Shown: positions 8,426-54,737, counted from the first letter of the stretch. The stretch is 61,096 nt of DNA from Candidatus Altimarinota bacterium (GCA_043769645.1 JAYVJC010000006.1:1-61096); one strand, 5' to 3'. Notes: generated by a model not told the origin, from the sequence alone. Numbers and translations are program-made.

Positions 8426-8998
8426 ATGTATAAAAATCGAATACACTCATCCTGATTTACGATTGTGGAACTCCTCATTGTTATGTGTATTATAGCGATT
8501 CTCATGTCAGTAGTATTTATCCCATATAATTACTATATGGACAGAGGTCGTGTGGAACAGACCACCAATACCATAGCCCAAAGATGGACTCTCAGTCACA
8601 CTGATGTGAGAAACGGACTTCTCTTTGATATGACGACATGAAAAAATGCAAATGAACTCGTCAGTATATCTTCCGGTGCGACGAAGATAGATTTTTATCT
8701 CCTTTCCGGAACTACTATTCCCTCAAATCTACCCATCACTGTGACGAGCCCTGACATTCGATTTTCAGATAGTGTTTTTTTCCCAAAAAATATCTCCATA
8801 CTTTCTATAACAGGCGTTACTCTTGCCGGAGATGGGAAAAGTATCTGATATTTTCTCCAAGCTCCATATGGAAGTGGAATATTTTTTACCGAAACTACTC
8901 GATCTTCAACTTGAATAATACTTCTCATTGGATATCCTGGAGGAACTACTGCGAACTATCGCGCTCGAGAAATCTACCTTGCACCACAAAATTATTAG
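8426..8998 (+). CDS. prepilin-type N-terminal cleavage/methylation domain protein (pseudopilin 1)
   Basis: Begins MYKNRIHSS-G(TGA 8453)-FTIVELLIVMCIIAILM, a class III signal peptide with Glu at +5. Several in-frame TGA codons; TAG at 8996. Confidence 0.8.
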
Positions 8999-9036
8999 CC
9001 ACCACCCCCCATACGATCGTTCATCACTTTTTTCCT

Positions 9037-9714
9037 TTGAAATACTCACCTTCTACATCCTGATTTACCCTCATCGAGATGATGATAGGTATCCTCATAT
9101 TTAGTATCAGTATGGCCGGTATTTTTGTGCTGATACAGATGGCGATCACCTCGTCAGCACAGGTAAAACAAGAGATTATAGCGGCAAATCTTCTGAGAGA
9201 ACAGGTCGAACTCGTCAAGAATCTTCGAGATACCAATGTTCGTAACTTTCTCCCTTGGGATAGTATATTTCTCGATAAAACGACGACCGATAGATTCAGC
9301 TCATGATACTATATCATCGAAAATGACTTTTCTGCTAATTCTGAAAAAGTGAGTCTTGATTCTACAACGGGATACTTTATCAAATCACCAGTCTCTATGA
9401 GTCGTATTTTTAGTACTGGTATTCCTATCACTTTGAGTGATATATTTGTGGGATCGAGACTCTATGTTGATGATGTTGGTAGGTATAGTCATACCGTCAG
9501 CAGCAGACAGACTCCTTTTGCTTCCTATATCAGAGTGATACCACTAGAAATCCCCACTCTTCCGACTCCTACAACAATCGTAAAACTTGACTCGAGTACT
9601 CTGCCTGCGGTCATTCGACCCCAAGCATATAAGATCGAAGCACGAGTGATCGTATCTTCCCCCACCTATCGAGCGTATGAACTCAATACTATAATAACAG
9701 ATTGGAAAAAGTAA
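9037..9714 (+). CDS. prepilin-type pseudopilin 2
   Basis: Contains ...STS-G(TGA 9061)-FTLIEMMIGILIFSISMAG. It joins track ORFs 9079..9306 and 9349..9714. There is no upstream ATG, so TTG 9037 is only a proposed start. Confidence 0.7.
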
Positions 9715-9751
9715 AATCAATACCTGCCTCTTTTCTCTATAATTTTCCCGC

Positions 9752-10411
9752 ATGTTTCTCCCGAAGTTTCGGCCTACTGCATCCTGATTCACCATTGTCG
9801 AAATGATTCTCGTAACATTGATCTTTTCGATGATGAGCATAGCGGCTATTTCTGTTTATATTCAGACGACTGATATTTCTCATAAGCTTGAGATGACACG
9901 GTTTCTTTCCGAATCAGCTCGAGAAATTACAGAGCGAATCGCGAGTGATGTACGAGAGCGGGGAATAGACCTCACTGCTTTGGTCGATCCTACTTCGACG
10001 CACCCTGGATGGAATACGCATATGTATAGTCAAAGCTGAGGAGAAATCCTTTCGGTAAATGGATCGAGAATCTATATTTTTGGTCAAAAGAACAGTACCT
10101 GAATTGTACCATGTACTGAAGTGAAAAAAAATAACCCAAAAGAGATCTGTGGTATCTACTTAGTAGAATGAAGAAATTATGCTAACGCCCTGAATCTGGC
10201 TGATAGTTTTATTCCTGATGAATCAAAAAAACGTGTCAAGATACGAAATGCTACTTTTTTTGTTTCTGGAAACGATCTTACAGAAAATAAAGTTACTATG
10301 ATCTTTACACTCACCCTTACGAACCAGTCTGGAGTAAAGGGGGAGTACTTGGCGAATTCAGATTTTACCATCCAAACGACGATATCCGAACGCGGATTCC
10401 GTAAGTACTAA
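9752..10411 (+). CDS. prepilin-type pseudopilin 3
   Basis: Begins MFLPKFRPTAS-G(TGA 9785)-FTIVEMILVTLIFSMM. It extends track ORF 9803..10039 through three more TGA codons to TAA at 10409. Confidence 0.8.
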
Positions 10412-10471
10412 AAATGAACTATCGGTATTTTTGATACACTACACTATTTTCAGTCCTCTCTTCTCCATCTT

Positions 10472-11407
10472 ATGAACTCTCGGCTCTACACATCTCATAA
10501 ATGATTTTCTATTCTGATGGCACTGGGAACCACTGGGGTACTCTTAGTAATCGCTGTAGGACTTGCCAATGTCTTTCTCTCAGAAATGCGTATCAATAAA
10601 ATGGTATATGATGGAATTCTAGCCTATTCTACAGCTGAATCCACCTTTGAATATGCGATGCTGAAGGCGAAAAATCATCGAGAAGGATTCCAGGATCAAC
10701 TGACAGCGAGTGATATCGATAGCAATCTCCTTTCGGGAACAACTCCGAGGACCCAGAATGTCAAAATGACCTATGATATGAAGGCTTCTAGTAATAACGC
10801 TTCCTTTACTCTTTCAGGAGGGGAGTATCTCATTCTTCCTTTATTCGTGGGTAACGATAATCTTCTGGTACCTGGATGAACTTCTAAAAGTCCGAATTTC
10901 TCTACGAGAACTGAGGCAATTTCAGAACTCAAGATATCAGGTCTCAATGGGGATACCTCCTGGACTATTCTCGGTATGAGCGGGGGAGTGACGATAGGTA
11001 TATCCGGAACGGGGACGATTGCCTCCAGTCTCGGCACCAAGGGAACGATGAGAAATCGTGGAGTTGACTGTTATGGTATCGTGGGGGGGAATGTGGAAAA
11101 AGTCGACTGCAATGGAACTATTCCTATTCTCGAAGAAAATAATTACTCGTTTGATAAAGAAATGACGGTATCAGATTTTCTTACTTCCTCGAATATGACA
11201 GATCGATATATTTCTATATTCAATAATGTAGATCCTGCCACTTCTACGCCTATTACGCTACAAATTGAAACTACAGGAAAGTTTGCTCTCCCACTCTTCG
11301 AGCTCACGACGACGGGAAGGGTAGGAAAAACTGCTCAATCCCTCGAGTACAGTGAAGATAAAAGTAGGTACTATGATGCTCTTAAGTACGGGCTTTACAA
11401 TGAGTAA
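10472..11407 (+). CDS. PilX-like minor pilin (prepilin-like N-terminus lacking Glu+5)
   Basis: Begins MNSRLYTSHK-G(TGA 10502)-FSILMALGTTGVLLVIAVGL. It joins track ORFs 10517..10879 and 10976..11407. Confidence 0.6.
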
Positions 11408-12226: not shown

Positions 12227-13585
12227 CTAATAATCATCCCCTCCACCCTTATAACTGGGAGATTGTGTCTTCTCGATTTCATAAAATTTCTGATGTTGCT
12301 TTTCGAACTTGAGATCGACTTGCCCCGTCGGACCGTTTCGATTCTTTCGGATAAAGACGCTGGTCATTCCGGGGATTTCTGAGAATTCGTTGTAGTAATC
12401 ATCTCGATAGAGCATCAGGATGATATCCGCATCCTGTTCGATCGATCCTGATTCACGGAGGTCAGACATCATGGGCCGCTTGTCTGGACGAGCTTCGAGT
12501 GCTCGCGAGAGCTGAGAGAGGGCAACGACCGGAACATCGAGTTCACGAGCAAGGGATTTGAGTCCACGGGAAATTTCCGATACTTCCTGGACACGGTTCA
12601 TACTGTTTCCACTCGACATGAGCTGGAGGTAGTCGATCACGATGAGATCGAGTCATGACTCCATCTTGAGACGCCGTGCTTTGCTTTTGAGTTCGAGGAT
12701 ACCTGCCCCAGCAGGGGAGTCATCGATATAGATTTTCGCTTGCGAGAGTTTCTCAAGCGCATCACCCATTCGGGCAAATTCTTCTTCAGAGAGTTTTCCT
12801 TTTTGAAGTTTCCAGCTGTCGACGGCCATGGTAGCCGCAATCATACGATCAGTAAGCTGTTCTTTGGACATTTCGAGGGAGAATATAGCTACATTTTTCC
12901 CTTTTTGACCGACATTTTGTGCGAAGTTCATAGCGATCGCGGTCTTTCCCATACTTGGACGAGCGGCGACGATGATAAGATCTCCTCGCTTGAATCCTCA
13001 GAGCTTCTCATCAAAGCTTACATATCCGCTAGAAACACTATTTTTCTGAGTAAGTGAGGGATCTGCCGCGATAGCTGCAAACTCTTCATATCGAGCGTTC
13101 AATATATCCTTGATTGGAACGAGTTTGTTCTGGATAAAGGTCTGTGTCACTGTAAAAAGAGATTTCTCAGATTTTTCCAGGAGACTCGTCGTTTCAGTCG
13201 CTTCATCGTATCCATAGAGCATGATCTCGTTTCCTGCCTTGATCAGTCTCCTCAATACTGATTTATTTTTGACGATTTGAGCGTATTGGAAGATATTTGC
13301 ACTCGTAAAAACTGAACTCGTGAGATCAGCAAGAAAAATATTCCCCCCGATTCATTCGAGCCGTTTCTTATCATCGAGAGATTCTCGTACCGTGATGAGG
13401 TCAATCGGTCGATTTCGAGTAAAGAGCTCAAGCATCGATTCGTAGACAAACGAGTGGGCGGGATCATAGAAGTCATCAGGAACGAGGAGGTGACTTACCT
13501 GAAATATCCCATCCTTATCGAGAAGGATGGATCCGAGAACTCATCGTTCGGCGTCGGCACTATGAGGGAGAATTTTGAGGTCCAA
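12227..13585 (-). CDS. dnaB: replicative DNA helicase DnaB
   Basis: Contains AARPSMGKT (Walker A), [33 protein letters not shown] and [11 protein letters not shown]. Four in-frame TGA codons join the track fragments. The start is provisional (TTG 13585; a stop lies in frame at 13607..13609). Confidence 0.92.
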
Positions 13586-15331: not shown

Positions 15332-15778
15332 ATGGATATCCTTCCCATGTGTGAACGTTGCGACGCTCTCTGTTGTCGAGCGTATGACATCTACGATAGT
15401 GCCTCTGAAACCTTCGTGAAACGTGCAGGGGTAGCCTGCAGTCATCTTGCCAATAATCGTTGCAGTATCTACCACGATATCCCGGATCACGCTGGGTATC
15501 GAGAGTCTTGTCATCAGTATGATTGTATGGAGTGAGGCCCAAACGTCACGGTCTTTCTACGTCGTATTCCTGACACTATCGATGTATCCGGGATGACAAC
15601 ATCTCTTCTCGAAACGATTCGACTTCGAGTTATGAAGAATCCCGAACTGAGAAGTGAGATTCTCATATATTCGGAAAAACTATTGAAAAAAATCGCAATA
15701 GATAACAGTCTATCTCTTTCAGTCAAGCTCGCCCGGGTACAGATAGAGCGATTTCGTCCTCCTAAAAATCAAAGCTAA
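15332..15778 (+). CDS. YkgJ-family cysteine-cluster protein (CxxCxxCC zinc/iron-chelating domain)
   Basis: Contains CERCDALCC plus further Cys/His. Track ORFs 15332..15535 and 15593..15778 are joined by a TGA at 15533. Confidence 0.6.
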
Positions 15779-17360
15779 ATTCTCTTTTACTCCACTCGAA
15801 GAGTTTCTGTATACGTTCGAATGGATGAAGATGTGGAAGGGGAATACCGAATTTTCGATGCATCTTGAGTTCCAGAGGTTGGATTTTAAAAGGTTTCCCG
15901 CTTTTCTCACATATGATTGCCCAATGTAATATATCATCGGGAATATGGCTTATATCAAAAGGAAGCCTCTCTGCTGGAAGTGTTTTCATTACTCACTCTG
16001 GTTTAAGTTCATAGTCCGACCATTCAAGACCTCGAGCCATGACTTCCTCCTTCGAGAGTGGGAGGATCATCATCGCAAATGATGCATCATAGGGATACCA
16101 GGCATATTTCGCATCAGAGAATTCTCCCCATTCTCCTGACTTCTGCATTTTCCTGATGAGTTTCTTTACACTGGATTCCCACTCTTCCTTCGAGTACTGT
16201 CTGTTGAAAATACAATATGAGAGATGATGCAGGCCAGAACATCAGAAAAGATAGGAACAGTTATGGCAATTGTGACAGTAGAATTGGTAACTCGAGTGAC
16301 TCCAGGAACCCTGAGTCCAGTAGAGATGCGATGAATTCCCACCAACCCCTATACAATCATAAGAAAGAGAAAGGTGCTCTCCGAAGCTCGTAATATCCAT
16401 GGAGTCTTTGACCTCGAAACAGTCATTGATATACCAGCTATCTTCCGAGTCAGCACTATTATACGATGCATGTACATTTTTACTATCATAGCAGTAGTCT
16501 CCTGTTGTATTTGTGGATCATGTGATAATATTTTTCTCGATCCCGTTTTTTTCACGAAGATCATGGAATTTCTTCTCAAATTCTAGTCGAAATGATTCTT
16601 CAGTCTGTATTCTCTTGAGCGTTTTTGTATATTCTTCCTCAGAACAAGGAGTGTTCAGGATGCGATATTGTTCGTTTTTGAGTCCTACACATCCGAGGAG
16701 GTTCTGGCAACCATCACAAGAAAAAGCATACCATGAGTCGCGACACTCCTCAGAGTTGTAAGAGAAATGCAGATTATAACACTTCCAGATATAAGCTGAG
16801 AAACTACAGTTATGAGAAAATCGTGTATAGATACAGTTCATGATAGAGGTATCATGATGAACAAAAAACCCATAGAGACACTTCTCATTCTCATTGCCAT
16901 TCGACGTGAGGTAGCAATCCTTCGAATTCCCATTTCCACTGACGAATTCACTATTTTCGAGTTCTTTATAGGCGTTATCGAGTGTGACATGTGGTACTTT
17001 CCTCATAAACTCCGCACACTGCTCTGAGAAATTTTTACTCCAATCTATTGCTTCAGCATAAGAAAGTCCATCCATCTTATCGCTCCACCAGTCTTGCTGG
17101 TTCCATATGACCGATCGCGAATCTTTCGGAAAGGTACTGATGATATCTTTTCCGGTCAGATCACATATTCTTTTATGAAGGGAGAAATAGTTTCGAAACT
17201 GAGCACGCCTCCTGAGGCGTTCTTGCGGGCAAAGTGTTGGAAAAGGAATCGGAAATTTCTCTCCTCAGATGATCGGAGAAAGTTTATCGAGAAGGGCTAT
17301 TTCCGAGTCTGAAATAGTGAATTCTTTTCATGAGATGCGACAGGTGCGAGTGAAGGGCAT
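15762..17360 (-). CDS. Cys-rich zinc-ribbon repeat protein, paralog D (function unknown)
   Basis: 532 codons, with all in-frame triplets checked (only TGA interruptions). It has an N-terminal module (...FTISDSEIALLDKLSP...PTLCPQERLRRRAQFRN...CDLTGKDIIS), a Cys-rich core, and a C-terminal module (IPDDILHWAIICEKSGKPFKIQPLELKMHRKFGIPLP). Confidence 0.75.
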
Positions 17361-17362
17361 GA

Positions 17363-18964
17363 TTAGTAGTTGATATGCCACTTGAGTCTATCGAGGTACC
17401 TCTGATCGGGATGTCGTCGAGGGATGGGAAGGTGACGTTTACGGTAGAACTCGAGTTCTTGTCTGATAATCTTGAATGGTTTTCCTGAGACTTCACATTC
17501 AATAGCCCAGTTGAAGATATCATCTGGAATTGATTCAATAGAATCTGGTAGTTTACTGGCAGGAATAATCTTCTCTACTTTAGGAAATGGTGCTTCGTAG
17601 TCGGACCAATTAAAGTTTTGTTTTATGGCTTCTTCTTTCTCGAGACGAAAATATTCATTTACTGCTGCTTCCGTATATCCGAGTGGCGAAAGTATCGCAG
17701 GAAAGAATTCACCCCAATCTTCATCATGCATCATCTTCTCGATAATCCGAGGAACCAATACTTCATACTCTTCCTTGGTATATTGCTTGTTGAGGATGCA
17801 GTAAGATTTATCACTCACTCCGACACATCCAAAAATATGCTCTGAGCTCGAACATGAGTAAGCGTAAAAGGAATATCTTGTATTTGGCCAGATATCTACA
17901 GAAAAAGCACATCCAAACATATTGACTCATCCAGTAGAAATCTCATAAGAATAGTCTGTTTGACAGCAACAGTAATCCAAGTCTTGAGCATTGAATGTAT
18001 CTTTCACAAACTGAGCATACTTCACATCTTCCATATCGGAAGTATCACAGACGTAGTAGCAATTTTCCGATCGTTTTGTATAGTCACCAATTACATGTTC
18101 AGTCAAAAGGAGATCAAGATGCTTCTTTGGTGTTTTTATTTTATTTTCATTATATATTTTCTGAAGTTGATTTGTTTCCATTTTTAATATCTGCTCTTTT
18201 TTGAGAGTGTATTCTTCCTTTGAGTACGAAATATTCTCAATGTAATACTTTTTATTTTGTAGATTGGATGATAGTATGCACTCTTCACATCAGATGCACC
18301 TTTCACAATACCACATATTTTGGCAAGCATCAAGGTTTTCAGAGTAAAATGATGCACTACAGTTTGATATATCGATACATTCATAACAAACTGAAGATCA
18401 AGTAGCGAGGATACAGTCAAAACAATCATTGCACTCAATCAATCTTTTTCCGTATGCACAATCACGAGCACTTTGGCAGCTGAAGATGAGATAGCAATTC
18501 TTACACTTATAGATCTGATTTGTGAACTCACAATTTTCTGATGCGGGATCTCTATATAGTGATCGGTGAGGTACATTTTTGAGGAGCTCTTCAAACTGCT
18601 CAAAAAATCCTCTCGTGAAATCAAACTCTCTTCCATAGCTCATCGGATCCCAATTATCGCTCCACCAGTAATCTCCGTTATAGACTGTATATGGTTTATC
18701 TGGTGAATAAATAGAGATGATTTCTTTCCCCGTTGCATCACACTTTCTCTTGTAGAGTTTTCTTTCATTACGGAATGCGAGACGTCTCTGTTGTCGACAG
18801 TCAGGACAGAGAGTTGGGGGAGGGATAAGGTATCTCTTCCCACTAAAAGTTGGAGATACTTTCTCATAGAACTCCATATCCTTATCCGTGATCGGAAAAA
18901 CAGAAGAACACTTCTTACAGATTCTATTTTCTATGAGATGTTCATTCGGTGGTATGGGGTACAA
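17363..18964 (-). CDS. Cys-rich zinc-ribbon repeat protein, paralog C
   Basis: 533 codons. Starts MYPIPPNEHLIENRICKKCSSVFPITDKDMEFYEKVSP...PTLCPDCRQQRRLAFRNERKLYKRKCDATGKEIIS and ends ...IPDDIFNWAIECEVSGKPFKIIRQELEFYRKRHLPIPRRHPDQRY. It joins three track ORFs via TGA. Its TAA lies 2 nt before the paralog D ATG. Confidence 0.8.
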
Positions 18965-19010
18965 GGAAATTAATAATTAAAAATTAATAATGCAGAATAT
19001 ATATAACAAG

Positions 19011-20621
19011 TTAATAATTAATGTAAATTTTTGTCCGTTCTTGGTATCGAATGTCGGGGTGTTTTTTCGGTATTGGAAGATTATGTTTTCTGTAGAAATC
19101 GAGTTCTTGTTTTGTGATCCGAAATGGTTTTCCAGAAACTTCACACTCTATAGCCCAATTCATGATATCATCAGGGATTTGTGAGATATTATCAGGGAGT
19201 TTTGAGCTCGGTATAGTTTTTGAAACCTTCGGAACTGGAGCCTCATAATCTGACCAATTGAATCACTGGCTGAGTGCTTCCTGTTTCGAAAGTGGATACT
19301 GTATCATATTCATCGTCTGATTATATCCAAAGTGACTATATTTTGTAGGAATAAATTCTCCCCATTCTCCTATTTTTTTCATATGAGCAATGATATCTGG
19401 AACCAGAGATTCATATTCTTCTTTCGTATAGTGTTTATTGAGGATGCAGTACTCAGTATTCTTGAGGCCGATACATCAGAAACACTGATGAACATTCCCC
19501 ACACAATAGGCAGAGTAGTAGAGGTGCGATATATTTGCCCAAGAATAGATGGTGAAGTGTACGGAACTACAGGCCTCTCCTACGACGATTGACTCGTATG
19601 AGTGATCGAGTCTATCCCCCCAGAGATCTATATCCATCGCAAGTCGAGTATCCCTGAGGCGAGACGAGTGACGTATGTCTTCACTTTCTTGAATTATGCT
19701 CGAATATGAAATATTTTTTGAATCAAATACTCGTGAGGAGTGATTGGCGTTCTCAGATCCTGTATTTTTTGGAATATATCATCAGTAGTTCGCTTCTCCG
19801 AGAAAGAGTTCGAACTTCTTCTTTTGCTCAGAAAGTGGGAGTATAAGGAATTTTTGGAGTTCACTATGGTATTCGCTTTCAGAGAATCAAACATTGTAGA
19901 TGTGATATTGCTGATTTCTCAAACCGACGCAAACATAACAATCCTTGCATCACTCACAATCATAGAGAAACCTTCCCTCACGACAATCCTTGACGTCGAA
20001 TGAAAAGTGTACACTATAACAGTTTCGAGCATCGAGGAGTTCATAGCTATTTTGACAATCAGAAATACCCAAACAATCTACACAATTCTTCGAGTCCCAC
20101 ATATCGATCGAGTAGCAGCAATCTTCATTATATCAAGCATTGAAACAGAGGTAACAATTTTTTAGATCGCTACAATTATCTGAGTATTCAGAGTTTTCCA
20201 TGCCGAGAGAAATAGACTTTCCAGGCATAGGAACTAACTTTTTGAGTTCTCACCACTGTTCGAAAAATGGTCTCGAAAAATCAAAGTCTCTTCCATACTG
20301 CTTCCCATCCCAGCCATCAGAATACCAGTAGTCACTTTCATAGACCGGACACGGTGCATCCGGAGAAAAGAGGGAAATGATTTCTTGTCATGTCGCATCA
20401 CATTTTCTTTTGTATATATTTCTCTCATTTCTCCATGCGTATCGGCGAGTTTTTCGGCACATCGGACAAAGAGCTGGAAAGGGAAGTTCGAATCTATCTC
20501 ATGCGATCGTTGGGGCGAGACGAATCAAAAAATCCTGATCGATTTTCGTGATATCGAATAAAGAAGAGCAAAGAATACAAGTACGGGTTTCGATGATGCT
20601 TTCGGTTCAGGATAGGGACAT
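19011..20621 (-). CDS. Cys-rich zinc-ribbon repeat protein, paralog B
   Basis: 536 codons, with every in-frame triplet checked (no TAA or TAG; about 16 TGA). It has the same N-terminal, core and C-terminal modules (...WAIECEVSGKPFRITKQELDFYRKHNLPIPKKHPDIRY). It is almost invisible in the standard ORF track. Confidence 0.75.
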
Positions 20622-20710
20622 CGAGATAAAAATATGATTCTATTATGAGAAAATCTGTATCTTTTGCAAGATTGGCTCGTTTTCTTTTATCAGGATGAGA
20701 AACGAGTCGT

Positions 20711-22771
20711 TTATGAAAGCACTTCCCTCAGATAACACTCCTCACAGTAGACTCTCTCTGGTCGTTCGGGTGCATAACTCGTAATCATCATCTTCCCTCT
20801 CGTCCCTGTCCTCGGATTTAGAGCGAATACAAATGATTCCTGGTTCCCCTCTCTTTTAGGAGAGGGGTTAGGGGTGAGGTGATTCTCCTCACAGTTTGGA
20901 CAGTCACAGAGTCTCTCAAAGAGTTTCCTTGGATTCCTCTGCTTCATACGATCCATGTGTCGTATATCAGGATGACGACGAGGAATAGGAAGATGATGTT
21001 TACGATAGAATTCTAACTCCTGCCTGATGATTCGAAATGGCTTTCCTGACACTTCACATTCTATAGCCCAGTTGAGCATATCATCAGGAATAGAATCAAT
21101 AGAATCTGGAAGTTTACTCGCTGGAATAACTTTCTCTACTTGAGGAAATGGTGCTTCATAATCAGACCAATTGAAATATAGCCCTCTTTTGAAAGAGGGG
21201 TGCCCGAAGGGTGGGGATATTTCCTGTTTCTCCAAATCCTCAGTCTTTCCCTTCGTTTCAGACAGCTCCTCTCAAAAAGGAGCCTTTTCAAGTACTTCTT
21301 CTCTCGTCATCGGAAAGTATTCTTGTGCAACCGTCTCATTGTATCCAAAGGGTGACAGAGAAGCGGGAAAGAATTCTCCCCATTCTCCATCTGCCATCAT
21401 CTTCTCTATAATACGAGGAACTAACTCTTCATATTCTTCCTTTGTATACTGTTTGTTCAGGATACAGTAGGATTTCCTATCGATTCCTACACAGAGAAAA
21501 CAGTGAGCCGTATTATCACACTCATTCTGATATATACCATTTTTTACACCCCAACATCGCACTGAGAAGAGAACATTTGAGCTTTCGAGCGCGGTATTGA
21601 TCGACTCATAGATATATCAACTATTGAATCCTACTGCATCACCATCCATCAGTGAAAGACCATTCAGCCCAGCATTACATGCATACTTTGTATTCTCTGC
21701 ATTTTCGAAGACATAGAAGGATGAATGGCAGTTTTTTCCATTCCGGATATAGTCTCCACTACAGTTCTCACTCTGGTGGATTTGCGAAGACCGGTGTATC
21801 CCTTTCTGGAAAAATATTGATACAGACTTATCTCTCTCGCTTTTCGAAGGGAATTTTCTCATAAAATCTTCTATCTTTTTTCTATATTCTTCCTCACTGT
21901 AGGCGGTATTAAAGAAGTGAAATTTCTGATTCCTCAGGTTCTGACAACCGAAACAATTACTACAACCGATACAGTTCCTGAGATAGCTACTATCTCGACA
22001 ATCCTCACAATTCACTGAGAATGAAAGTGCATGACAGTCCATACAATCGAGACAGTCATAGCACTGATGCGAGCGATCACAAAACGAACAATCAACACAA
22101 AAGTCAGCATAGTGAAGCCAATATCCATAGAGACAATCTTCATCGAAGCTACTCTCGAAGAGCATGTAGGTATTCTTATTATCCGTACAAGTCTGAGTAT
22201 ATTCACTATTCTCACTATTTGTATTAAAAAGCGATGGTCTCGGCACGACTTGGAGAAGATCAGAAAATTGTTCAAATGCCGATCGGGAAAAATCAAACTC
22301 TCTTCCATACTTCATAGGATCCCATGCGTCACTCCACCAGTATTCTTGCTCATACACAGTAAAAGGAGAAACAGGGGAATAGACGGAGATAATATCCTTT
22401 CCAGTCGCATCGCACTTTCGTTTGTAGAGTTTTCTTTCATTCCGAAAACTGAGTCTTCTTTGTGCACGACAGTCTGGACAGAGCGTCGGAGGAGGGATGA
22501 GAAAAACTCCCTTTTGAAAGGGAGTACCAGCGATAGCGGGGGAGGGATTTCCTCCTGTTTCTTGTATCTTTATTTTTCATTCAGCAATGAGTGTTTTGGT
22601 AGTTTCTGAAATAGGTAAATCCTCCATCTCCTTCGGGAAGGAGGCTAGTGGAAATACTGGACTTACCTTCTCATAGAACTCCATATCTTTATCCGTGATT
22701 GGAAACTGTACCGAGCACTGTCGACACTTTCGAGATTCTACGAGATGTTCACCGGGAGGGATAGGGTACAT
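20711..22771 (-). CDS. Cys-rich zinc-ribbon repeat protein, paralog A (686 aa, with in-frame palindromic insertions and a longer C-terminus)
   Basis: Joins track ORFs 22577..22771, 21617..22357, 21272..21562 and 20711..21235 through in-frame TGA codons, and the junctions were checked. It matches the family of paralogs B-D, but with about 45-aa and 30-aa insertions and an extra C-terminal Cys module (...CDCPNCEE...VYCEECY). Confidence 0.8.
20846..20867. repeat. GC-rich perfect hairpin (cccctctc-ttttag-gagagggg) inside the paralog A coding sequence
   Basis: An 8-bp inverted repeat lying within the C-terminal segment that only paralog A has. It is translated in frame as ...NPSPKREGN... Confidence 0.8.
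21182..21199. repeat. GC-rich hairpin (ccctctt-ttga-aagaggg) inside the paralog A coding sequence
   Basis: A 7-bp inverted repeat within an insertion of about 30 aa relative to paralog C. It is translated as ...HPSFKRGLY... Confidence 0.8.
22506..22525. repeat. GC-rich hairpin (actccctt-ttga-aagggagt) inside the paralog A coding sequence
   Basis: An 8-bp inverted repeat within an insertion of about 45 aa relative to paralog C. It is translated as ...GTPFQKGVF... Two more small hairpins follow, at about 22541..22556 and 22624..22642. Confidence 0.8.
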
Positions 22772-23089
22772 GGGATTCTGAATTACTATTACTGAATCTA
22801 ATCATACAAAATAAGGATTCTTTTTCAATACTTCTTTAGCATTAATACTCTATAAACTCTTTTTCTTTCATTCCTCATTTTCCTAAATCCATTTTTTCTT
22901 TTGCTTTAGATGAGAATCGACTGAGTTTTTTCGTTCAAAAATCGTATACAAACTCCTCGTGTCAAGCTATTTTTTCTTTTGACTTCGATACAAAAAAGAG
23001 TAAAAACTTCACCTAGATTTCACATAGAAAAGTACAGATTTTACTCTCGAAAATAGAAACGTCAACTGCCCAATATCTACCTATATTTT
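22772..23089. promoter_or_regulatory. AT-rich divergent intergenic region upstream of dnaA; candidate oriC and promoter region
   Basis: 318 bp of AT-rich non-coding DNA between the divergent paralog A and dnaA. The call rests on context only. I could not identify convincing consensus DnaA boxes by eye. Confidence 0.3.
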
Positions 23090-26518: not shown

Positions 26519-29320
26519 ATGAATATGTGATTACTTGATCGTATCAGGGAAGGCTTTACTAGAAATTCTCGACTAGATATTCAATATGCTGAAAGTTTAC
26601 GGAAAAGAGCTGATTTATTTGCGATCCCAGATGGTCGTTATCAGGAACTTCTGAACAGATATGAAAAAGGTATCTCTCTGTGAAAAGTACTTCAGGAATG
26701 AGGTTCCCGATATTCTTTCGCATACTGACTTGAGGCCTATATTTTTTATGGGACGAAAAGGTTAGGAACAAAATTTGAAGTACTAACACTAAAACGAGAA
26801 ACTGAGATATCAGAATTTATTCGGTGAATGAGTGAGTTTTGAGAAGATATTCGTATGAGTTTCTGACACTTTATGAAGGATCGGGAGGAAGCTCGGAGAT
26901 TTCAAAGACTCTGTTTTTTATGACATTATTGGCAGACCCAGAAAGGTACACTTTGAAAATCACCATATATCAATGGTAAACTAAAACTGCATGAGCTCCT
27001 GGCTCAGGAACTCGCCTATATGAATTTTGCCTCCTCAAAGCCTAAACTTTGAAGTAAGTTACATATGGAAGAAAGTGATCTTCTGGAGAGGCAAAAGCAA
27101 GTACATATTCAAGGACTCCCGAACTCAGTAGGTCTTCTTTGAATTAAGTTTATACAACCACATGATGGAGTTACCCTCCTTGAAGAGTACTTCGTAGTCA
27201 AGAATCCATCTTTCTCAGAAATACGAGCCCAGGGGGCAAATATGTTAGCAATATGGCCACTCTTTTTTAAGAAACATGCACAACTCTTAAGTTCTGATGA
27301 CCCAATCGTTGATGAATTGAGAAAACTTCTCTGAGAAGCATATTTTTGAGTACTTTTAGACGGAGTGGAAACATCAAAACTAGACTGAATCGTTCACCAA
27401 GTTGAAACTCGGGTAGCTGATATTCAGTGATCAGGTGGATGAAAAACATCAGAATGGCAATCAAAAATTGAACCAGAAAGACCCCTTATCCAATCAGGAA
27501 TTCCGAGTGACTATAGGTTCAAAAAACCGAGTATGAGATCGCCCTTTATTCGATCATTATCGAATTCACGTACCGGTGAAGTGACGGTGAAAAGGGAAGA
27601 TATAGTACAGACGATTCCTCATAAAAAATATACCCTTCTCTGGCTCTATGTACCAGATGAAACAGGATCTAAGGAATGAATTTGGAAAAGTGTCGCCGAT
27701 GCCTCCAGTATTACTATCTTCTGCGTCCCAGGGTTTCGCTATCAGTGCACTTTTTCTCGACCAGAAAATACTGAATACGAATGAATCGAAGCAGGTATTA
27801 TTACTGATTTTTTCTATGAAATAAGAACCAGTGTTCCATCTCAGAAATCGAATAATCCTGCAGGGAACACAAAAATTGAAAGAGATACTTCTGATGATGG
27901 GGGTTCTACTATTCAGATAATAAAAGGTACATCAATATCAGTAAGAGATGTATTTTTAAAACTAGATATCATCCAGAGTATTCATGATGAAGTCACTCAG
28001 GGTAACAGTACGCCATATTATGATGCATGAAAAAATATGTATACTTTGATGATCGCGTATTGAGACGATTATATCTATTTAGAATACAATCTTATAACTC
28101 AAGAAGCTCAAGTACGCTATTGAGATCTTCAGTTTGAAGATGAGAGTACTGTAATTAAGAGCGAAATTGACGCCTATTTTGAGAAAGTAGTACTTCGGGT
28201 AACACAAGAAAAAAATGAAGAAAAAAATCGTAAATTATGAGAATTGGGAAAATATACTACGGGAATTGTATGAGCACTTCGAGAACATACTCCAGTCCTT
28301 CCTTCTTTTCGATACAATGATAAACTATTTACAGGAATCTGGGTGATGATGTGAAAAGGGAATCATCATGTAGAAAAAATGCTCGACTCAATTTCTCAAA
28401 AGGGTTTAGAAATAGTTGCAGAAAGATCATGAGAGTGATGATCAGAACTCAGGATTCAGCTCCGATTTGAAGAGGAAGCCGAGACATTATGAACCATAAC
28501 ATCAACACCCCAAGAACCATACTATGCGATAGCTCTTCAAAAAAGTCATCCACAGGTGCAATTTATCGGATCTATCCTACAGGATATGTATTTTATATTC
28601 GGTTACATATGAGCAAGAGCTGGATGAGTCATAGTCGAAACATGAAGAAAAACATGAAATAAAAGATATATCCTGGATGAAGAATTACCATCCATCTTGG
28701 AGTATTGATTTATTGATCAACAAAGTAGGCCTGATCAATTGGTAAAAACAAAAATCCTCACGTGATATGAATTAGGATTTGTCAGAGATAATATCTATCG
28801 TTGGATTTTGTGAGAGTGAAAATCTAGGATGAAAGATGGTAGTATAGAATGAAAGAAACATCAATATCTTCTCAAAACTGATAATAATATTGAAAGCATT
28901 GTTCTTCTCGACGAGAGGATACAGTATGCCGGATATTGAGAAACTCCTGAGGTTTATGAAAAAATAAGAAGGAATAAAAGACTACAAAAATACTTTATAT
29001 TGAGAATGGTTGCAACTATCATAGGTCGGAGTTTTCGAAATAAGAGCCCATTTCCAGGAAGAATGCAAGCTGAATTCAAAAGTTTCTGGAGTGGAATCGA
29101 CAGAGTGATTCAAGAAAAATTTCTCGCTTGTATGCAAGAATGAGTATGATGATCTGGGGAAGCTCTAGCCTTGAAATGTAGAGATGGAATATCTTTATTT
29201 GAAAAAATGCTGAACTATTTCGAATCACATGATATCGCACTCCTCTACGTAAACCCCGTACTCATAGATGTAGATAGTTTTGTAAAAGAGGCGCAAAAAC
29301 TTGGATATATGAAGGATTAG
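26519..29320 (+). CDS. large hypothetical protein, 933 aa, 41 in-frame TGA codons
   Basis: Every frame-2 codon from the upstream TAG (26513) to TAG 29318 was read. There is no TAA or TAG in frame, there are 41 TGA codons, and the ATG is at 26519. The standard track has no ORF of 60 aa or more between 27465 and 29411. No domain recognised. Confidence 0.7.
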
Positions 29321-46013: not shown

Positions 46014-47219
46014 TTATCCCACTTCAAATAAAACTCCGAGTTCTTGCTTCGTATTCGACTTGAGGATTCCCTGTGAGATGACTCATTCTCCGAATCTGCT
46101 CTTGAGCTTCACGAGTACATCAGAAACCCGCGTATTCTTTATATGTATAGTATCAGCGATATCAAATACTGATAATTGCTTCGGTGTAAATGAAGCCAAC
46201 TCAGAGAAGGTGACTCAGGTGGTTCTATAGGTAACTCACTTCGAGTATAGTGAATGGAATATCCCTTTGAGTACGTCAATCATCCGAGACCGATCGACAT
46301 GGACTTCTCCCATATCCACTGCTCTATTTGCATAGGTAAATTCCTTCGTCCTCAGAAGTACTCCTATCACTCGTGCTCACTGTCGTTCAGCGAGCATCGT
46401 CTCGTAGGCACGCTCGAAATTCATGAGGATTTGTCCCCAGAGAAAACGAGCATCGTCTGATATCATATGATTGAATGACCTCGTACATGCAATACTCTTT
46501 CTTTTCTTACTCGTGTCATGAGGCACCCAAGAGTCGACTCCGTGGAGTTCCAACCAGAGGTTGCTCCCATTCCTTCCGAGGATCTTACTGACATCCATCC
46601 CCTCCATCGAGTAGAAGTCATATACTGTCTTGATACTCACTCAGAGTCTCGCACTATTTCTGCGGGCGATATAGGGGATTTCTGTGACTGGAAGGGTCCG
46701 AAAGAGGTCTTCTATATCCGGTGTGTGGAAATCCACATAGGATCAGAAGGGTTTATTGAGATCTCCGAACATCTTCGCTCGGAGTCGAGTATTCGATATA
46801 CCTATTGATACGGGAATCCCGATATCGTGGTAGATTTCTTCCTTTAGCGACTCGGCGAAGTTATCATACCTTCCGGGAATATGGGTGAGTTCTACAAAGA
46901 GCTCATCGATCGAAAACACTTCTATATTGCCAAGTTTATCCGTGAGATATTTCATCAGTCTTTCAGAGACTTGTCGATACCAGGCATGGTCGGGGAGTCT
47001 CACAATGAGTTTTTTTCAGAGCATTCTTCGAGCTTCCCAGAGGGGAGTACCGACCCGGATTCCGAGCTTCTTGCACTCATAGCTCGCGGCGATAACGATT
47101 TGATCTCCTACCGCTACAAATTTCCCCTTGAGAGATGGATCTCTCAGGACTTCACACGACGCATAAAAACTATTGCAATCGATATGTGCATATATATGCC
47201 TTGAGGTATGAAAAATCAT
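46014..47219 (-). CDS. dinB: Y-family DNA polymerase (DinB/UmuC-like)
   Basis: Starts HIDCNSFYASCEVLRDPSLKGKFVAV, then ...SIDELFVEL... and ...VSIGISNTRLRAKM... Track ORFs 47016.., 46743.. and 46377.. are joined by TGA and continue to TAA 46014 (1206 nt). The ATG lies 2 nt after the lexA stop. Confidence 0.85.
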
Positions 47220-47221
47220 AG

Positions 47222-47803
47222 TTAACGATACTTACGCACAGAACCTGAGACAACTCAGAGGATTTCACACGGTCAATCAACTATTATTGGTGGATATTTT
47301 GGATTGGCAGGTATGAGTTTCAGTATATCTCCCTTTTTCTCGAAATATTTGAGTGTGACCTTACCATCGAGGGAGGCGATGACGATATCACCGTTGTTTG
47401 GATGGCGAGATCGATCGAGGATGACGATATCTCCCTCATGTATTCCCGCATCTTCCATGCTATCTCCCTTCACCTTCACGAAATAGGTACTGGCTGGATG
47501 TTCGATAAGATACTTCTCGAGGTCCATCTGAGTCGTCGGTTGTGTCTCGGGGGTAAAGGGCAGTCCTGCCCGTACTGACTCAAAGAGAGGATATCCTATC
47601 AGTAAATTCGAAGGTATATAGCTCTTATCTACCATTTCAAGCATACCATTTTCTAGGAGCTTCTGAAAGAATCTCCGTACTCAGGCAGCGTTCGCATACC
47701 TGAGAAGCTTACCCATCTGATCGAAGGATTGATACACTCATCCAGTACGAAAAAAATCACGAAGCGTATCGAGTTTTTTTGTGTAGTTTACATCTGGTCG
47801 CAT
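47222..47803 (-). CDS. lexA: LexA repressor (wHTH + S24 peptidase)
   Basis: Contains VRAG-LPF (Ala-Gly cleavage site), KGDSM (Ser nucleophile) and a downstream Lys in ...GKVTLKYF... The N-terminal wHTH-like region is reached through two TGA codons. 582 nt. Confidence 0.85.
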
Positions 47804-48722: not shown

Positions 48723-48881
48723 CTATGCTACTATCTTGATAAAAAAATAATTTCTTGGTAATGATTTTTTTAGTCTTGCCCTAGTAGTAGGATCAGTCTC
48801 AGTTTTGAGAAGTTCTATCTTTTTCTTATAGTCTATTTCCGAGACTATGATGTTGTCTATGAGTTGATCGCGTTCTGTCAT
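48723..48881 (-). CDS. small phage hypothetical protein (52 aa)
   Basis: Its ATG overlaps the amidase stop (TAATG). It is the last gene of the lysis cassette. Confidence 0.3.
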   Translation of the reverse strand: MTERDQLIDNIIVSEIDYKKKIELLKTETDPTTRARLKKSLPRNYFFIKIVA

Positions 48882-49429
48882 TATTGTGCTTTAGGAGTAA
48901 GTTTTGATTGATAGTCATGCCAGCTTGTATATCCTTTTTCCCAGAAAGATTTTGCTATGTCTACTTTCCGAGTTTTACTCACACCATCCCATAACTGTTT
49001 TTTTTGGCTTCCTTGCCACGTGAGATCCGCGTGACGAAGTACGTTCTCCTTTGGAATGTTGAACACGGCCATCAGGTGTTCTATGAGTCTTTTGACCTCG
49101 AACCGTTGAGCATCCGTGAAGTCAGGTCAAATAGTCTCTATTCAGAGTGAGTGAAAGTTGAGTCCAGTGATACTTCACCAGTTACTCTGTCCAGCGTGCC
49201 AGCATACCATTTTTGGATCTGCGAGCTTGTATGAGGATCCATCACCGTCTACTATGAAGTGACACGATACTTCACTGGTCTTTGTGAGTCCGAGAAGGGT
49301 CTTGAGGTTCCCTCCGAGTGTACCTTGTACCGTCCCGGTATGGTGAACAATGATATAGTCGCATGTATTCTCTATTCACTTTGTGAAGTTCTTTTGCTGT
49401 GCGGATAAGTCTTGTTTGAATGGATACAT
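48881..49429 (-). CDS. N-acetylmuramoyl-L-alanine amidase (Amidase_2/PGRP-type endolysin)
   Basis: Contains DYIIVHHTG, CHFIVDGDG, CWHAGQSNW-G(TGA) and NFHSL-G(TGA)-IE. It joins track ORF 48881..49072 to upstream codons through 4 TGA. 549 nt. Confidence 0.8.
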
Positions 49430-49430
49430 A

Positions 49431-49631
49431 TTATGGGTAGTTATGTTCGTTGGCTTTTACGAGATCGAGCTCTTTGCGGATATCATGAATCTCGAAGAGG
49501 AGTCCATCGAGGATACATTTCATCGCTTTACGTTCTGTATCAGATACGACTTGAGAAGCCATAAAGACTTTATCGTATCGATGTTGGAAATGGAGGAGAT
49601 CAGCTTCGAGGAGTGATTTTCGGAGTAACAT
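49431..49631 (-). CDS. phage hypothetical protein (66 aa)
   Basis: Intact track ORF, packed between neighbouring genes. Confidence 0.45.
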   Translation of the reverse strand: MLLRKSLLEADLLHFQHRYDKVFMASQVVSDTERKAMKCILDGLLFEIHDIRKELDLVKANEHNYP

Positions 49632-49635
49632 AGGA

Positions 49636-49818
49636 TTATCTTAGGAAGTTATACCCGGCGAATACTTGGCCTGGTTCGAGTTGCCGGGCCTCGTCATCGT
49701 CTACATGTTTCCGCTCTGCCCTTTCGAGTACTTGCGTTGCCCGTTCCTCTGTCTGAGCCTTGAGAAAGCTCGCGACGTGTTTCGGGATTGTTCAATCTTC
49801 GTATTCGAGTGTTTCCAT
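49636..49818 (-). CDS. phage hypothetical protein (60 aa)
   Basis: ATG at 49818, one TGA, TAA at 49636; 183 nt. Confidence 0.4.
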
Positions 49819-49822
49819 AGGT

Positions 49823-50206
49823 TTAATGGTAATTGAAGTAATCTTTTCCACCGATCCGAACTGCGTAGTAGAATATGAGAGCTAGGAGGGTGTATTTTAT
49901 TACCGATATCCCTACCGCATTTTCTATATCTTCGATTATCCTTTTGAAGAACCCCATATCGCATTCTTTCCGTCTCGCCTCGTCACCGCCCTGCCAGTAG
50001 GTAAAATCGTGAATATTACAGTCCGCTTGCCAGAATACGAGTCTTAGGCGCTTGAGGCTTTGCAATATGATCCACCGTATGAGCCTGTTCTTTACTTGAG
50101 TTCCAGTACCACCGCACCCATTACATACCCCATTGACTCTGAGAAATTCCCACTCCCATTTCGTGAGGCTTTTATAGTCTCGAGATTTGAAGTCCTGAAG
50201 TGTCAT
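49823..50206 (-). CDS. phage protein with prokaryotic phospholipase A2-like motif, putative
   Basis: Intact 127-aa ORF. NGCGGTG is followed by CNIHDFTYWQGGD...CDMGFFKRI, which resembles the C-x-x-HD-F-x-Y active site of bacterial and viral PLA2 domains. Confidence 0.4.
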   Translation of the reverse strand: MTLQDFKSRDYKSLTKWEWEFLRVNGVCNGCGGTGTQVKNRLIRWIILQSLKRLRLVFWQADCNIHDFTYWQGGDEARRKECDMGFFKRIIEDIENAVGISVIKYTLLALIFYYAVRIGGKDYFNYH

Positions 50207-50520
50207 TATTTAGTAATACGTGTAAGGATTTCCTCGAGTTGCTTTGATTGATTCTCGAGCTTTTTAGAGTGTCATTCGTGCCAATTATTCGAGGTTTGGA
50301 TCTGAGTGATAAAGGTATCTGATATCTTCTTGAGTTCTTCTCGAAAGAATTGATTTTGTTCAAAGGAAATTGTTTTGAAGTTCGTAAGTACCTCTTCGAA
50401 TTTCAGAGCCATATAAGGGATGCCTTTGAACATAAACCCAAAGAACGTTCCTACAAATAAGAGTCCTATTATTCAGTTCTGTGAGAGTAGTTGAGATGCG
50501 ATATGGTCTATTGATTCCAT
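50206..50520 (-). CDS. holin-like single-TM phage protein
   Basis: ATG at 50520 with two TGA codons. TM helix IIGLLFVGTFFGFMFKGI followed by a charged coiled tail. Its stop overlaps the next ATG (TAATG). Confidence 0.4.
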
Positions 50521-50548
50521 TATTGATTAAGTGGTTAGTTATAAGTAT

Positions 50549-51349
50549 TTATAAAAAAGACAAAAAAGAAGTATTAGCAGATGATGCTGTCGATGAAACC
50601 ATAGTAAATGTACCAGAAGAAGTAAAAGTATGTATAGTCTGTCATCAACTTGAGGTTATGGTTCCTCAAGTTGAAGTAGGAGACACTCCATCACTTCAAT
50701 TAGTAGCGTAAGAAATAATAACTATTCCTGATCATCCTGTTCCTCCAGTTCAAGCATTAGCACCTCACCCTCATCATCCAAGTCAATTTGTACCATTTCC
50801 TGCGGTTCAAAAGTTTGCAGCTCATGTACCTCAACCTCAAGTTCCTCAAGCCCCTCCTCCACCGTTTCCTCACCCTCACCCTCATCCTCAATAAGTCACC
50901 GCACTTCCACTAATAGAGTAACTTATCCCATTTCCTCAAGCACTTCATACGTTAGTTCCAGGTGTCGAAGACGCTGATCACGCACCTCATCATCCTGCTC
51001 CACTTCACGAACCTGTATTTCAGTTCGCTCCAGCGTTTCATTGTCCTCCAGTTCATGAAGCTCCTGTGGAAACACTTCACCATCCTCATCCTCATCCAGA
51101 TCATCCAGTTTGAGCGGAAAAAGCTGAATCAGAACCTCACCTTCATCACCCTATTGCGGTAAGTGAAGAGAATACAGAGTTAGTCCCACTTACGTGTGGT
51201 ATTCCTCAAGTTCCCACGGTTATAGAGTAGGATTGTGGAGTTACTGTAATTGAAGCTGAGTATAAAACTCCTCATGCTCCACCTCATCCAGGAGCTGAAT
51301 CCCCTCCTCATCCTCATCCCGCGACTACCAATGCTTTTACTGTTGCCAT
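50549..51349 (-). CDS. glycine-rich phage protein (tail-fibre-associated glycine-rich domain type), 266 aa with 40 TGA codons
   Basis: All 267 in-frame triplets were checked: no TAA or TAG before 50549, and 40 TGA codons. Starts MATVKALVVAGGGGGGDSAPGGGGAGGVLY, continues ...ITVTPQSYSITVGTGG..., and ends ...GTGGSGIVIISY... No minus-strand ORF is reported here by the standard track. Confidence 0.75.
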
Positions 51350-51350
51350 A

Positions 51351-51869
51351 TTATATATTTTGTCAAATAATATATCCTTGATAGATTCAGGCAGAAGTAC
51401 AAATAAAGCCAAAAGTATCTATTTTACTAGCTGTTGTGGTAAGAGTTGGCACAGTACCTCACACCCACTTAATAGTATTAAACCAGGTTACTGTTCGACT
51501 TCCAGTAGCATCTTGTATAAGGTCTATTACTATCTTGTCTCAAGGTAATATATTGTTTAATGCCAGAATTCTATTCCCCCCAAGAGTTACTCGATGGTAG
51601 TCTCATACATTCTTGTCAAACGTTATAGTTGCCCCGTCAGTATCTGTTACTATAGCACCCTTGATACTCGCAATTATTGGAGTAGTAAGTGTTTTATTCG
51701 TTAGAGTTACTGCTCACGTAGTAGTTACATAAATAGTATCAAAAACCCCTTTGAAGAGGTTATATATTCCTTGCCACGTCGTACTTCCAGCAACTCCACC
51801 TTGAGAAGCTGGAACTACGTCAGTTAATGCAGGAGTTGTGATGGTTGGTAGATTTGGAATTGTTGGCAT
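51351..51869 (-). CDS. phage fibre/receptor-binding-like structural protein (hypothetical)
   Basis: ATG at 51869 with 6 TGA codons; TAA at 51351, frame checked. Thr/Gly-rich beta-type sequence. It lies 1 nt upstream of the glycine-rich gene. Confidence 0.55.
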
Positions 51870-51874
51870 CTTTC

Positions 51875-52285: not shown

Positions 52286-52347
52286 ATGTGTATTTGTTAG
52301 AAAATTATTTCCTTCCTCCCCTCTCGAAAGAGGAGATAGGAAACAAC

Positions 52348-52758: not shown

Positions 52759-52777
52759 GGGATTGAAAGATTAGAGA

Positions 52778-54726: not shown

Positions 54727-54737
54727 AGGGTGATTGA

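Follow-up and report, generated by a model that had tools for sequence, protein, structure and literature searches.

A stretch of 61,096 nucleotides from Candidatus Altimarinota bacterium (GCA_043769645.1, JAYVJC010000006.1:1-61096), which was analysed at its full length and is called the window here, carries an array of four tandem paralogous genes, A to D, on its minus strand. All four are intact, point in the same direction and belong to a protein family that is very large and uncharacterised. Their products are predicted to share an architecture in which a duplicated solenoid of 12-residue coils lies between two homologous zinc-finger end modules. They are tentatively regarded here as zinc-stabilised intracellular binding adaptors with common docking ends and paralog-specific solenoid surfaces, the array forming a repertoire; this reading is preferred, with some reserve.

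The four genes and their genetic code

The window has a G+C content of 40%. Open reading frames (ORFs) of at least 100 amino acids (aa) add up to 34,058 aa under translation table 25 but to only 9,388 aa under table 11, and in-frame TGA codons occur five times in A, three times in B, 11 times in C and three times in D, in agreement with the initial annotation, which had described most of the array as broken up or invisible under the standard code. These TGA codons coincide with Gly in the other paralogs, as in CDATxQEIIS versus CDATGKEIIS, FxC versus FGC, and LFxCSGL/CFxCIGL versus IFGCVGV; hence UGA = Gly is the correct reading for the four genes. Under this code, the four minus-strand paralogs of 532, 533, 536 and 686 aa are intact, as had been proposed, and align end to end with 34-54% identity and more than 100 invariant columns.

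D is the first gene of the array, which runs in the order D-C-B-A (subgroups a-e-a-g) with spacers of 89 nt (D-C), 46 nt (C-B) and 2 nt (B-A). The start of A thus lies 2 nt past the stop of B, which is the close pair that had been pointed out earlier. B begins with a TTG codon, and its N-terminus LYPIPPNEHL matches MYPIPPGEHL of D. The idea that the genes are an artefact, or decaying pseudogenes seen through a permissive translation, for which the 3-11 TGA codons per gene under the standard code could be cited, was rejected as having practically no chance of being right: the TGA codons fall at conserved Gly columns, the frames are full length, there are thousands of homologs at E < 1e-140, and the genes are intact in relatives that use code 11.

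Zinc-finger end modules

The motifs given in the initial annotation were all recovered: the N-terminal string, the Cys spacing of the centre and NWSDYE...IPDDI..NWAIECEVSGKPF..EL.FYRK..LPIP..HP at the C-terminus. The N module had been described there as a zinc ribbon. It does have the features of a Cys4 zinc-finger module, but it consists of a treble-clef CxxC...CxxC finger followed by an RNER-KLY-KRKCD-TGK-IIS ribbon, in which one of four Cys is kept, and then by WWSD-WD, rather than being one simple ribbon. In B, C and D the finger has the form C-x2-C ... C-P-x-C, with two CxxC knuckles that provide four Zn ligands. The finger of A is degenerate (TCRISG...LCPQER); two of the four Cys are lost and only C7 and C44 are present.

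The C-terminal end begins with C1 (NWAIECEVSGKPF..ELEFYRK..LPIPRRHPD.R), which repeats the N treble clef in degenerate form and in D and most homologs is followed by C2, a CxxC...CxxC ribbon (RNPRKLFERKCDKC...VYCEECY). The suspected origin of the C-terminal module as a degenerate repeat of the N module is borne out by profile-profile alignment (hhalign probability 98.9%, E 1.1e-17). The two copies differ in the Cys that they keep: the N copy has the four of the first finger and one of the second, while the C copy has those of the second finger and has lost the first. All four C1 Cys are still present in a few family members. The second CD-C..C/VYCEECY part, which had been placed in a 'paralog A', was found as CDCPNC...VYCEECY in the 686-aa copy, called D here.

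With respect to known domains, the C2 ribbon of homologs corresponds to PF23477 (zf_Tbcl_2, 'CxxC-x17-CxxC'), which matched 62 of 82 homologs at E<=0.01; its gathering score of 27 bits was passed by homologs P0002 (28.2), P0013 (31.8) and P0041 (27.8). The C2 of D is split by an insert of ~36 aa and gave no Pfam match to PF23477, and A, B and C lack C2. It was reported that the domain type CxxC-x17-CxxC binds Zn in vitro in small proteins of Methanosarcina (M. mazei) (PMC12704099). For the N module, PF13451 (zf_Tbcl) was matched by 39 of 82 homologs at E<=0.01, the best at 1.2e-4, and a Pfam search of the window proteins gave no match for A, C or D. As the PF13451 score is sub-threshold, the module is best labelled 'zf_Tbcl-like'. 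Weak LIM- and Stc1-like matches of the finger modules were also obtained in PDB profile searches and with Foldseek.

The central solenoid

The centre of the protein had been described as full of regularly spaced Cys pairs. It is indeed Cys-periodic; however, the pattern is one of strict triplets in a 12-residue solenoid repeat, and the repeat region is itself duplicated. The halves, M1 and M2, are homologous (hhalign probability 99.9%, E 5.6e-35). Since the N and C modules are homologous as well, the order N-M1-M2-C is expected to give a pseudo-symmetric molecule.

A coil is composed of four [C/S]-x-[N/D]-type triplets, and in 531 family sequences Cys is nearly confined to every third position of M1 and M2. 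In M1, phase 0 is occupied by Cys (40%), Ser (22%) and Leu/Val/Ile (20%), phase 1 is mixed, and phase 2 is enriched in Asn (25%) and Asp (17%). In the profile autocorrelation, values are positive at all lags that are multiples of 3 and negative at the others, the highest falling at 12 and 24, a pattern that control regions do not have. Columns 12 apart, that is, in adjacent coils, show the strongest co-occurrence of Cys. When M1 of all four paralogs is written in 12-residue rows, eight rungs of x-[ND]-[CS] / aromatic-x-[CS] / x-x-[C or aliphatic] / x-x-[CS] are seen. Each half closes with a better conserved CxxCxxC(xxC) run, then NLxNKxYxIxNxxYSKEEY, then a helix; the Cys of these caps are the best conserved of all, with frequencies of 0.7-0.9. 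With a charge of about -5 each, the two solenoid halves are acidic; the ends are mildly basic. The segment after M2 (CILNKQYTKEEYE...GEWGEFFP..SPFGYNET) and the end modules are conserved family-wide, and an invariant Asp stands at equivalent sites of both halves (D182/D327 of homolog P0001).

This wealth of Cys raises the possibility that the proteins bind metal or Fe-S clusters, for storage, buffering or as an electron or metal 'wire', through the stacked inward Cys and the CxxCxxCxxC caps. Cys accounts for 12-14% of the M1 residues of B, C and D and for 8% of those of A, it recurs at every third residue with maximal co-occurrence between neighbouring coils, the caps hold its best conserved instances, and a SufC-like ATPase is found beside family arrays in eight loci. 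However, the same positions are often Ser or aliphatic across the family, as would be expected of small core residues, and in the divergent subfamily b most solenoid Cys are replaced by Ser or Ile, so that its solenoids are nearly Cys-free. Because of this subfamily, most solenoid Cys are probably core residues and not obligatory metal ligands. In addition, surfaces that are specific to a paralog and conserved among orthologs would not be expected for bulk storage, and the adjacency of SufC may be mere conserved synteny. A role in metal or Fe-S binding is therefore considered quite unlikely.

Structure and homology searches

Two homologs taken from databases were modelled: P0001, which has 569 aa and shares 56% identity with B and D, and the C ortholog P0119. 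The AlphaFold model of P0001 had a mean predicted local distance difference test score (pLDDT) of 82.5 and a predicted template modelling score (pTM) of 0.83, and that of P0119, which was based on a 150-sequence alignment, reached 87.2 and 0.89. With both models, Foldseek gave no fold match at E < 0.1 in PDB or BFVD; the weak best matches were left-handed beta-helix acyltransferases and the Stc1 tandem zinc finger (2LUY).

The former matches bring up enzymes with a left-handed beta-helix (LbH), such as hexapeptide-repeat acyltransferases or gamma-carbonic anhydrases, LpxD, LpxA, GlmU and gamma-carbonic anhydrase being the top PDB matches of both models. All of these matches had E >= 0.13, probability <= 0.05 and TM <= 0.16; moreover, the repeat period is 3/12 and not 6/18, no Hexapep Pfam match was obtained, and a conserved catalytic His was not identified. 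An LbH enzyme is hence close to refuted and hardly credible.

When the whole family, or its conserved 150 C-terminal aa, was used as a sequence profile against PDB, only non-significant matches to LIM, RPN6 and similar proteins were obtained, the LIM-like ones falling on the C2 ribbon. In Pfam, the four proteins and 82 homologs gave sub-threshold or terminal zinc-finger matches only, and no model of the core; NCBIfam gave no match at E <= 1 for the four proteins, and PADLOC-DB 2.0 none for B, P0001 or P0119. No signal peptide or transmembrane segment was predicted in family proteins, which would accordingly be soluble. No description of the family was found in full-text literature searches. 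The initial annotation could name no family or function for these proteins, and the table-25 translation, profile searches and structure prediction on homologs likewise led to no characterised enzyme family and no fold match.

Size and range of the family

One search gave more than 6000 significant matches, the best 120 at E < 1e-147, with database names such as 'hypothetical protein', 'CxxC-x17-CxxC domain-containing protein' and 'Zn ribbon nucleic-acid-binding protein'. In a library of 50%-identity representatives, 5600 matches were obtained at E <= 1e-3 and 2352 at E <= 1e-30, and among GTDB species genomes at least 561 stretches encode relatives. The 80 matches listed with taxa all belong to metagenome-assembled genomes of Gracilibacteria, Peribacteria, Peregrinibacteria or unclassified Patescibacteria, and the family was found only in Patescibacteria of the Gracilibacteria/Peribacteria type. 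No relatives were found in IMG/VR viral contigs. ORF statistics assign 57 sequences to code 25, namely 56 fetched loci and the window, and 22 loci to code 11; as the genes are intact in code-11 relatives too, the family predates, or is independent of, UGA recoding.

A survey of copy number and synteny, which had been suggested earlier, revealed multi-copy arrays without conserved flanking synteny. The 78 fetched loci contain 308 copies, detected with a hidden Markov model (HMM) in six-frame translations; they stand in arrays on the same strand, with as many as 10 tandem copies in 20 kb. In the complete 1.355-Mb genome CP060226.1, at least 21 copies were found in the three regions sampled, which at ~1.7 kb per gene amounts to ~37 kb or 2.7% of the genome. 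In four loci (L014, L030, L026 and L032; e.g. JAGXIW010000003.1 60507-70130), canonical copies (800-900 bits) and divergent Cys-poor copies (220-350 bits) strictly alternate with gaps of 4-15 nt, the divergent subfamily lacking the N-terminal finger. This strict alternation suggests two-gene cassettes or heterodimers.

Paralogs and orthologs

Region-wise identity among paralogs and orthologs was used in place of the ratio of nonsynonymous to synonymous substitutions, since synonymous sites are saturated at 35-54% identity. The N module and the last ~150 residues show low column entropy, whereas that of residues 130-370 is high. The paralogs of the window are 41-75% identical in N and 51-85% in C1, and 24-38% in M1 and M2. 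D and its ortholog P0075, on the other hand, are 84% identical over aligned columns (M1 93%, M2 77%), and C and its ortholog P0158 72% overall (M1 78%, M2 58%). A second ortholog of D is the 683-aa gene of locus L001, and an ortholog of C in locus L005 is 70% identical. As the solenoid differs between paralogs but is conserved between orthologs, the array appears to be an old repertoire and not the product of recent duplication. Clustering assigned D and B to 'a', the main subgroup, and C and A to 'e' and 'g', respectively; arrays in other genomes (L002, L005) again contain members of subgroups e, g and j. The subgroups are ancient, and each is under purifying selection.

Genes associated with the arrays

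The non-family ORFs of all fetched loci were clustered as neighbours. A TrmB-family helix-turn-helix (HTH) protein of ~255 aa (PF01978, E 2e-10) lies divergently, directly upstream of arrays, in 24 of 78 loci. A P-loop ATPase of ~746 aa with a T4SS-DNA_transf/TrwB/HerA match (PF02534, E 5e-12) lies co-directionally inside arrays in 21 of 78 loci and directly follows the D ortholog in L001 and L005. No transmembrane segment was found in this VirD4-like ATPase, and it weakly matches the mad8 and HerA models of PADLOC. In the 61-kb window no VirD4-like ATPase, TrmB or SufC-like ATPase was found.

The ATPase invites the explanation that the family proteins are substrates or effectors of a type IV-like export, sent to or displayed toward the bacterium on which these episymbionts live. 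The end modules would then be the recognition signal, by analogy with XVIPCD in Xanthomonas, and the Cys-rich solenoid would be disulfide-locked outside the cell like the beetle antifreeze helix. Besides the position of the ATPase within the arrays, the conserved termini and variable body of the proteins speak for this. To our knowledge, a Cys-rich coil of 12 residues is otherwise found in secreted antifreeze proteins only, which was also counted in favour of export. On the other hand, the ATPase has no transmembrane helices, unlike canonical type IV coupling proteins, and it is missing from the window array; family members are without a signal peptide, fingers of the Zn(Cys)4 kind typically occur in cytoplasmic proteins, and disulfides are not required, since the solenoid Cys of subfamily b are largely Ser and Ile. 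A survey of Patescibacteria reported 5,713 VirD4 homologs, of which only 148 are near virB4, and left their role open; such orphan VirD4 homologs, common and unexplained, are consistent with export, whereas VirB6 homologues were undetected in Gracilibacteria, for which the authors suggested extreme sequence divergence (PMC12102498). On balance, export is thought to be unlikely.

A diversified array of paralogs with a P-loop ATPase weakly matching mad8/HerA and a TrmB HTH protein could also be taken as a conflict system for defence or counter-defence, in which diversified solenoid sensors act with a HerA/FtsK-type ATPase under an HTH regulator, and a prophage is indeed present elsewhere in the window. 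Yet the family itself has no PADLOC match, and no nuclease, protease or other effector domain was detected. The solenoid is conserved among orthologs with no sign of a rapid arms-race turnover, the multiple arrays and high copy number in several sampled genomes differ from the patchy spread typical of defence islands, and the family is missing from IMG/VR viral contigs. A defence function is thus very unlikely.

Proposed function

For the preferred reading as intracellular binding adaptors, the following scheme can be envisaged. The conserved LIM-like, Arg/Lys-rich end modules would provide a common dock for nucleic acid or a shared partner, for example the ATPase, and the solenoid surface of each paralog would confer a distinct target specificity. 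With ends that dock in common and solenoids that recognise different targets, the array would represent a repertoire of specificities expressed as an operon. The array of the window would be a reduced version without ATPase or TrmB.

Several observations weigh against this scheme. No homology points to a function of the family. The ATPase and TrmB are missing not only from the window but also from most sampled loci, so the link may be loose. The zf_Tbcl match of B (PF13451, residues 14-61, E 5.5e-4, 20.3 bits) stays under the gathering score of 24 bits. Paralog A has lost two of the four N-terminal Zn ligands and yet has an ortholog in L004 at 66-67% identity; such ligand loss together with conserved orthologs argues against Zn binding at the N end as a requirement in every member. 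Finally, the invariant Asp and the SPFGYNET loop could mark a catalytic or metal site.

A further-reaching proposal is somewhat unlikely as a whole: the family may represent a new architecture, a 12-residue C-x-N Cys-ladder solenoid with homologous zinc-finger caps, whose repertoires serve as specificity subunits or cargo for orphan soluble VirD4/HerA-like ATPases and form with them a new nucleic-acid-handling or host-interaction system that occupies ~3% of reduced genomes.

Genomic surroundings

The array had been said to end at a divergent dnaA promoter and origin region (Table 1). The divergent dnaA gene is there, and the cumulative GC skew has its minimum at ~22-26 kb, where the AT skew turns too, consistent with an origin. 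However, no part of the window shows an enrichment of consensus DnaA boxes, the D-dnaA spacer contains none, and promoter and terminator scans gave matches no more frequent than in shuffled sequence. In a comparison of the window with 77 related loci no flanking synteny was conserved, dnaA included; hence the position beside dnaA looks incidental, without support as a functional link.

The extra length of D (686 versus ~535-570 aa) is due to three in-frame palindromic inserts. Their GC-rich core ends in a palindrome (CCCTYTTTCAAAAGRGGG), and the hairpins at the inserts are the 'terminators' flagged inside D. The encoded peptides read ..NPSP..PFQKG, ..SPP..PSFKRG and ..NPSPKREG, and similar peptides (PLIKGD, SPQPSPEREGG, NPPSLDKLGIPP) occur in homologs elsewhere at four recurrent loop positions. 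The inserts have the appearance of a small repeat element, palindromic and inserting in frame, comparable to the Rickettsia palindromic elements.

A candidate ORF for a Cys-rich protein of 148 aa (MCERCDALCCRAYD...; 15332-15778, plus strand), with no Pfam match, is convergent with A, with an overlap of 17 nt at the 3' end of A. Downstream of the dnaA cluster lies an ORF of 933 aa (26519-29320, plus strand) with no Pfam match at E <= 0.001. At 8426-11407 (plus strand), four consecutive ORFs of ~190-310 aa, at least three of which have prepilin-like N-termini (e.g. ...GFTIVELLIVMCIIAIL), suggest a cluster for type IV pilins or pseudopilins. At 46014-47803 (minus strand) lies the gene of a Y-family polymerase of the UmuC/DinB type (IMS, E 3e-37), directly preceded by an S24 peptidase (LexA/UmuD-like) gene, and a prophage-like block in code 25 extends over 48881-59972 on the minus strand.

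Table 1 Features of the window; module boundaries of the four paralogs are hmmalign coordinates
Feature	Position	Strand	Description
Paralog A	15762-17360	-	532 aa; divergent subgroup 'g'; without C2; HMM 483 bits
Paralog B	17363-18964	-	533 aa; TTG start; canonical subgroup 'a'; without C2; HMM 787 bits
Paralog C	19011-20621	-	536 aa; subgroup 'e'; without C2 ribbon; HMM 668 bits
Paralog D	20711-22771	-	686 aa; canonical subgroup 'a'; N-M1-M2-C1-C2; HMM 878 bits over profile positions 3-566
N end module of D	22277-22726	-	
N end module, equivalents	C 20265-20579; B 18605-18919; A 17028-17342	-	
M1 solenoid half of D	21938-22216	-	~8 coils of 12 residues; ends CIGCSNCFGC..NLRNQKF.F.N..YSEEEY
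M1, equivalents	C 19923-20201; B 18263-18541; A 16683-16961	-	
M2 solenoid half of D	21482-21772	-	Ends CFLCVGI..KSYCILNKQYTKEEYE
M2, equivalents	C 19464-19757; B 17816-18103; A 16230-16517	-	
C end module of D	20720-21175	-	C1 + C2
C1, equivalents	A 15810-16028; B 17378-17614; C 19026-19262	-	C1 only
D insert 1	22508-22651	-	aa ~41-88; palindrome CCCTTTCAAAAGGG; alignment gap
D inserts 2 and 3	~21173-21289; ~20786-20902	-	Same GC-rich core as insert 1
D-dnaA intergenic region	22772-23089	.	318 nt; divergent; sigma-70-like hexamers facing D (22828-22801)
dnaA	23090-24520	+	Pfam Bac_DnaA E 5.9e-64, Bac_DnaA_C E 3e-22; context, not family member
dnaB	12227-13435	-	DnaB_C E 1e-103; 10 kb from dnaA
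N-acetylmuramoyl-L-alanine amidase	48881-49429	-	Prophage-like block
Gly-rich fibre-like protein	50549-51349	-	Prophage-like block
SU10-type portal	56403-58358	-	Prophage-like block
Large terminase	58371-59972	-	Prophage-like block

Relation to known systems and significance

The end fingers belong to known, poorly understood zinc-finger families, and multi-copy lineage-specific families are a known phenomenon. The N module shares CxxC-F-x-[IF]-T-x-x-[DE]-x-x-FY...P-x-x-C-P-x-C-R with zf_Tbcl (PF13451), and the C2 of D and of most homologs is a CxxC...CxxC ribbon like zf_Tbcl_2 (PF23477, TIGR04272). Those families are short stand-alone or tandem fingers, whereas here the fingers cap a double solenoid of 250-300 aa in a protein of ~530-690 aa, and C1 is without Cys in most members. 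LIM and Stc1-type modules mediate protein-protein contacts, and the paired finger modules bear a weak likeness in sequence to LIM and in fold to Stc1 (2LUY); however, the scores are non-significant (E 0.04-1.3), and ligand spacing and context differ.

Among solenoids, the antifreeze protein of Tenebrio molitor (TmAFP) has a 12-residue coil, very high Cys content and rungs rich in Asn, Asp, Ser and Thr, and the family resembles it in all three respects. TmAFP has two Cys per coil in intra-coil disulfides and a TxT ice-binding face, and it is secreted. Here, in contrast, up to four inward Cys, Ser or aliphatic positions occur per coil, zinc fingers are attached, there is no signal peptide and no PDB fold matches; a TmAFP-type i/i+6 Cys signal was not seen among the top 40 Cys-covarying pairs. 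LpxA, LpxD, GlmU and gamma-carbonic anhydrase, the best but non-significant structural neighbours of the centre, are coiled solenoids with small inward residues, but the LbH coil has 18 residues of hexapeptides and the family coil 12 residues of triplets, and no sequence profile matches. The pentapeptide-repeat proteins Qnr and MfpA are likewise cytoplasmic, acidic, four-sided solenoids of short repeats and offer an analogy for a binding or mimicry surface. Their period is 5/20 rather than 3/12, they match in neither sequence nor fold, and they are without zinc-finger ends or comparable multi-copy arrays; no autocorrelation at lag 5, 10 or 20 and no pentapeptide-repeat Pfam match were found in the family. 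Substrates of type IV secretion systems that are recognised by VirD4 (XVIPCD effectors) also form sets of paralogs with a conserved terminus and a variable body beside a VirD4-type ATPase; the ATPase here, however, is soluble and mostly unlinked to virB4, and there is no toxin domain and no immunity gene.

As far as the literature searches show, no description is available of the triplet solenoid with its 12-residue coils, of the pseudo-symmetric architecture or of the association with an orphan VirD4-like ATPase. The family is without a name, a Pfam model of its core or a structural relative, and its central repeat of triplets in 12-residue coils with up to four Cys per coil would, if borne out by an experimental structure, be a new type of solenoid. 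Families such as that of this array are completely hidden when the standard code is used for annotation. The link to orphan VirD4-like ATPases gives a concrete handle on a component that was left unexplained in the survey of Patescibacteria type IV secretion systems (PMC12102498). The retention of the family at high genomic cost makes a central role in this lineage's biology likely, the Gracilibacteria and Peribacteria being organisms with genomes of ~1-1.4 Mb that live off other cells.

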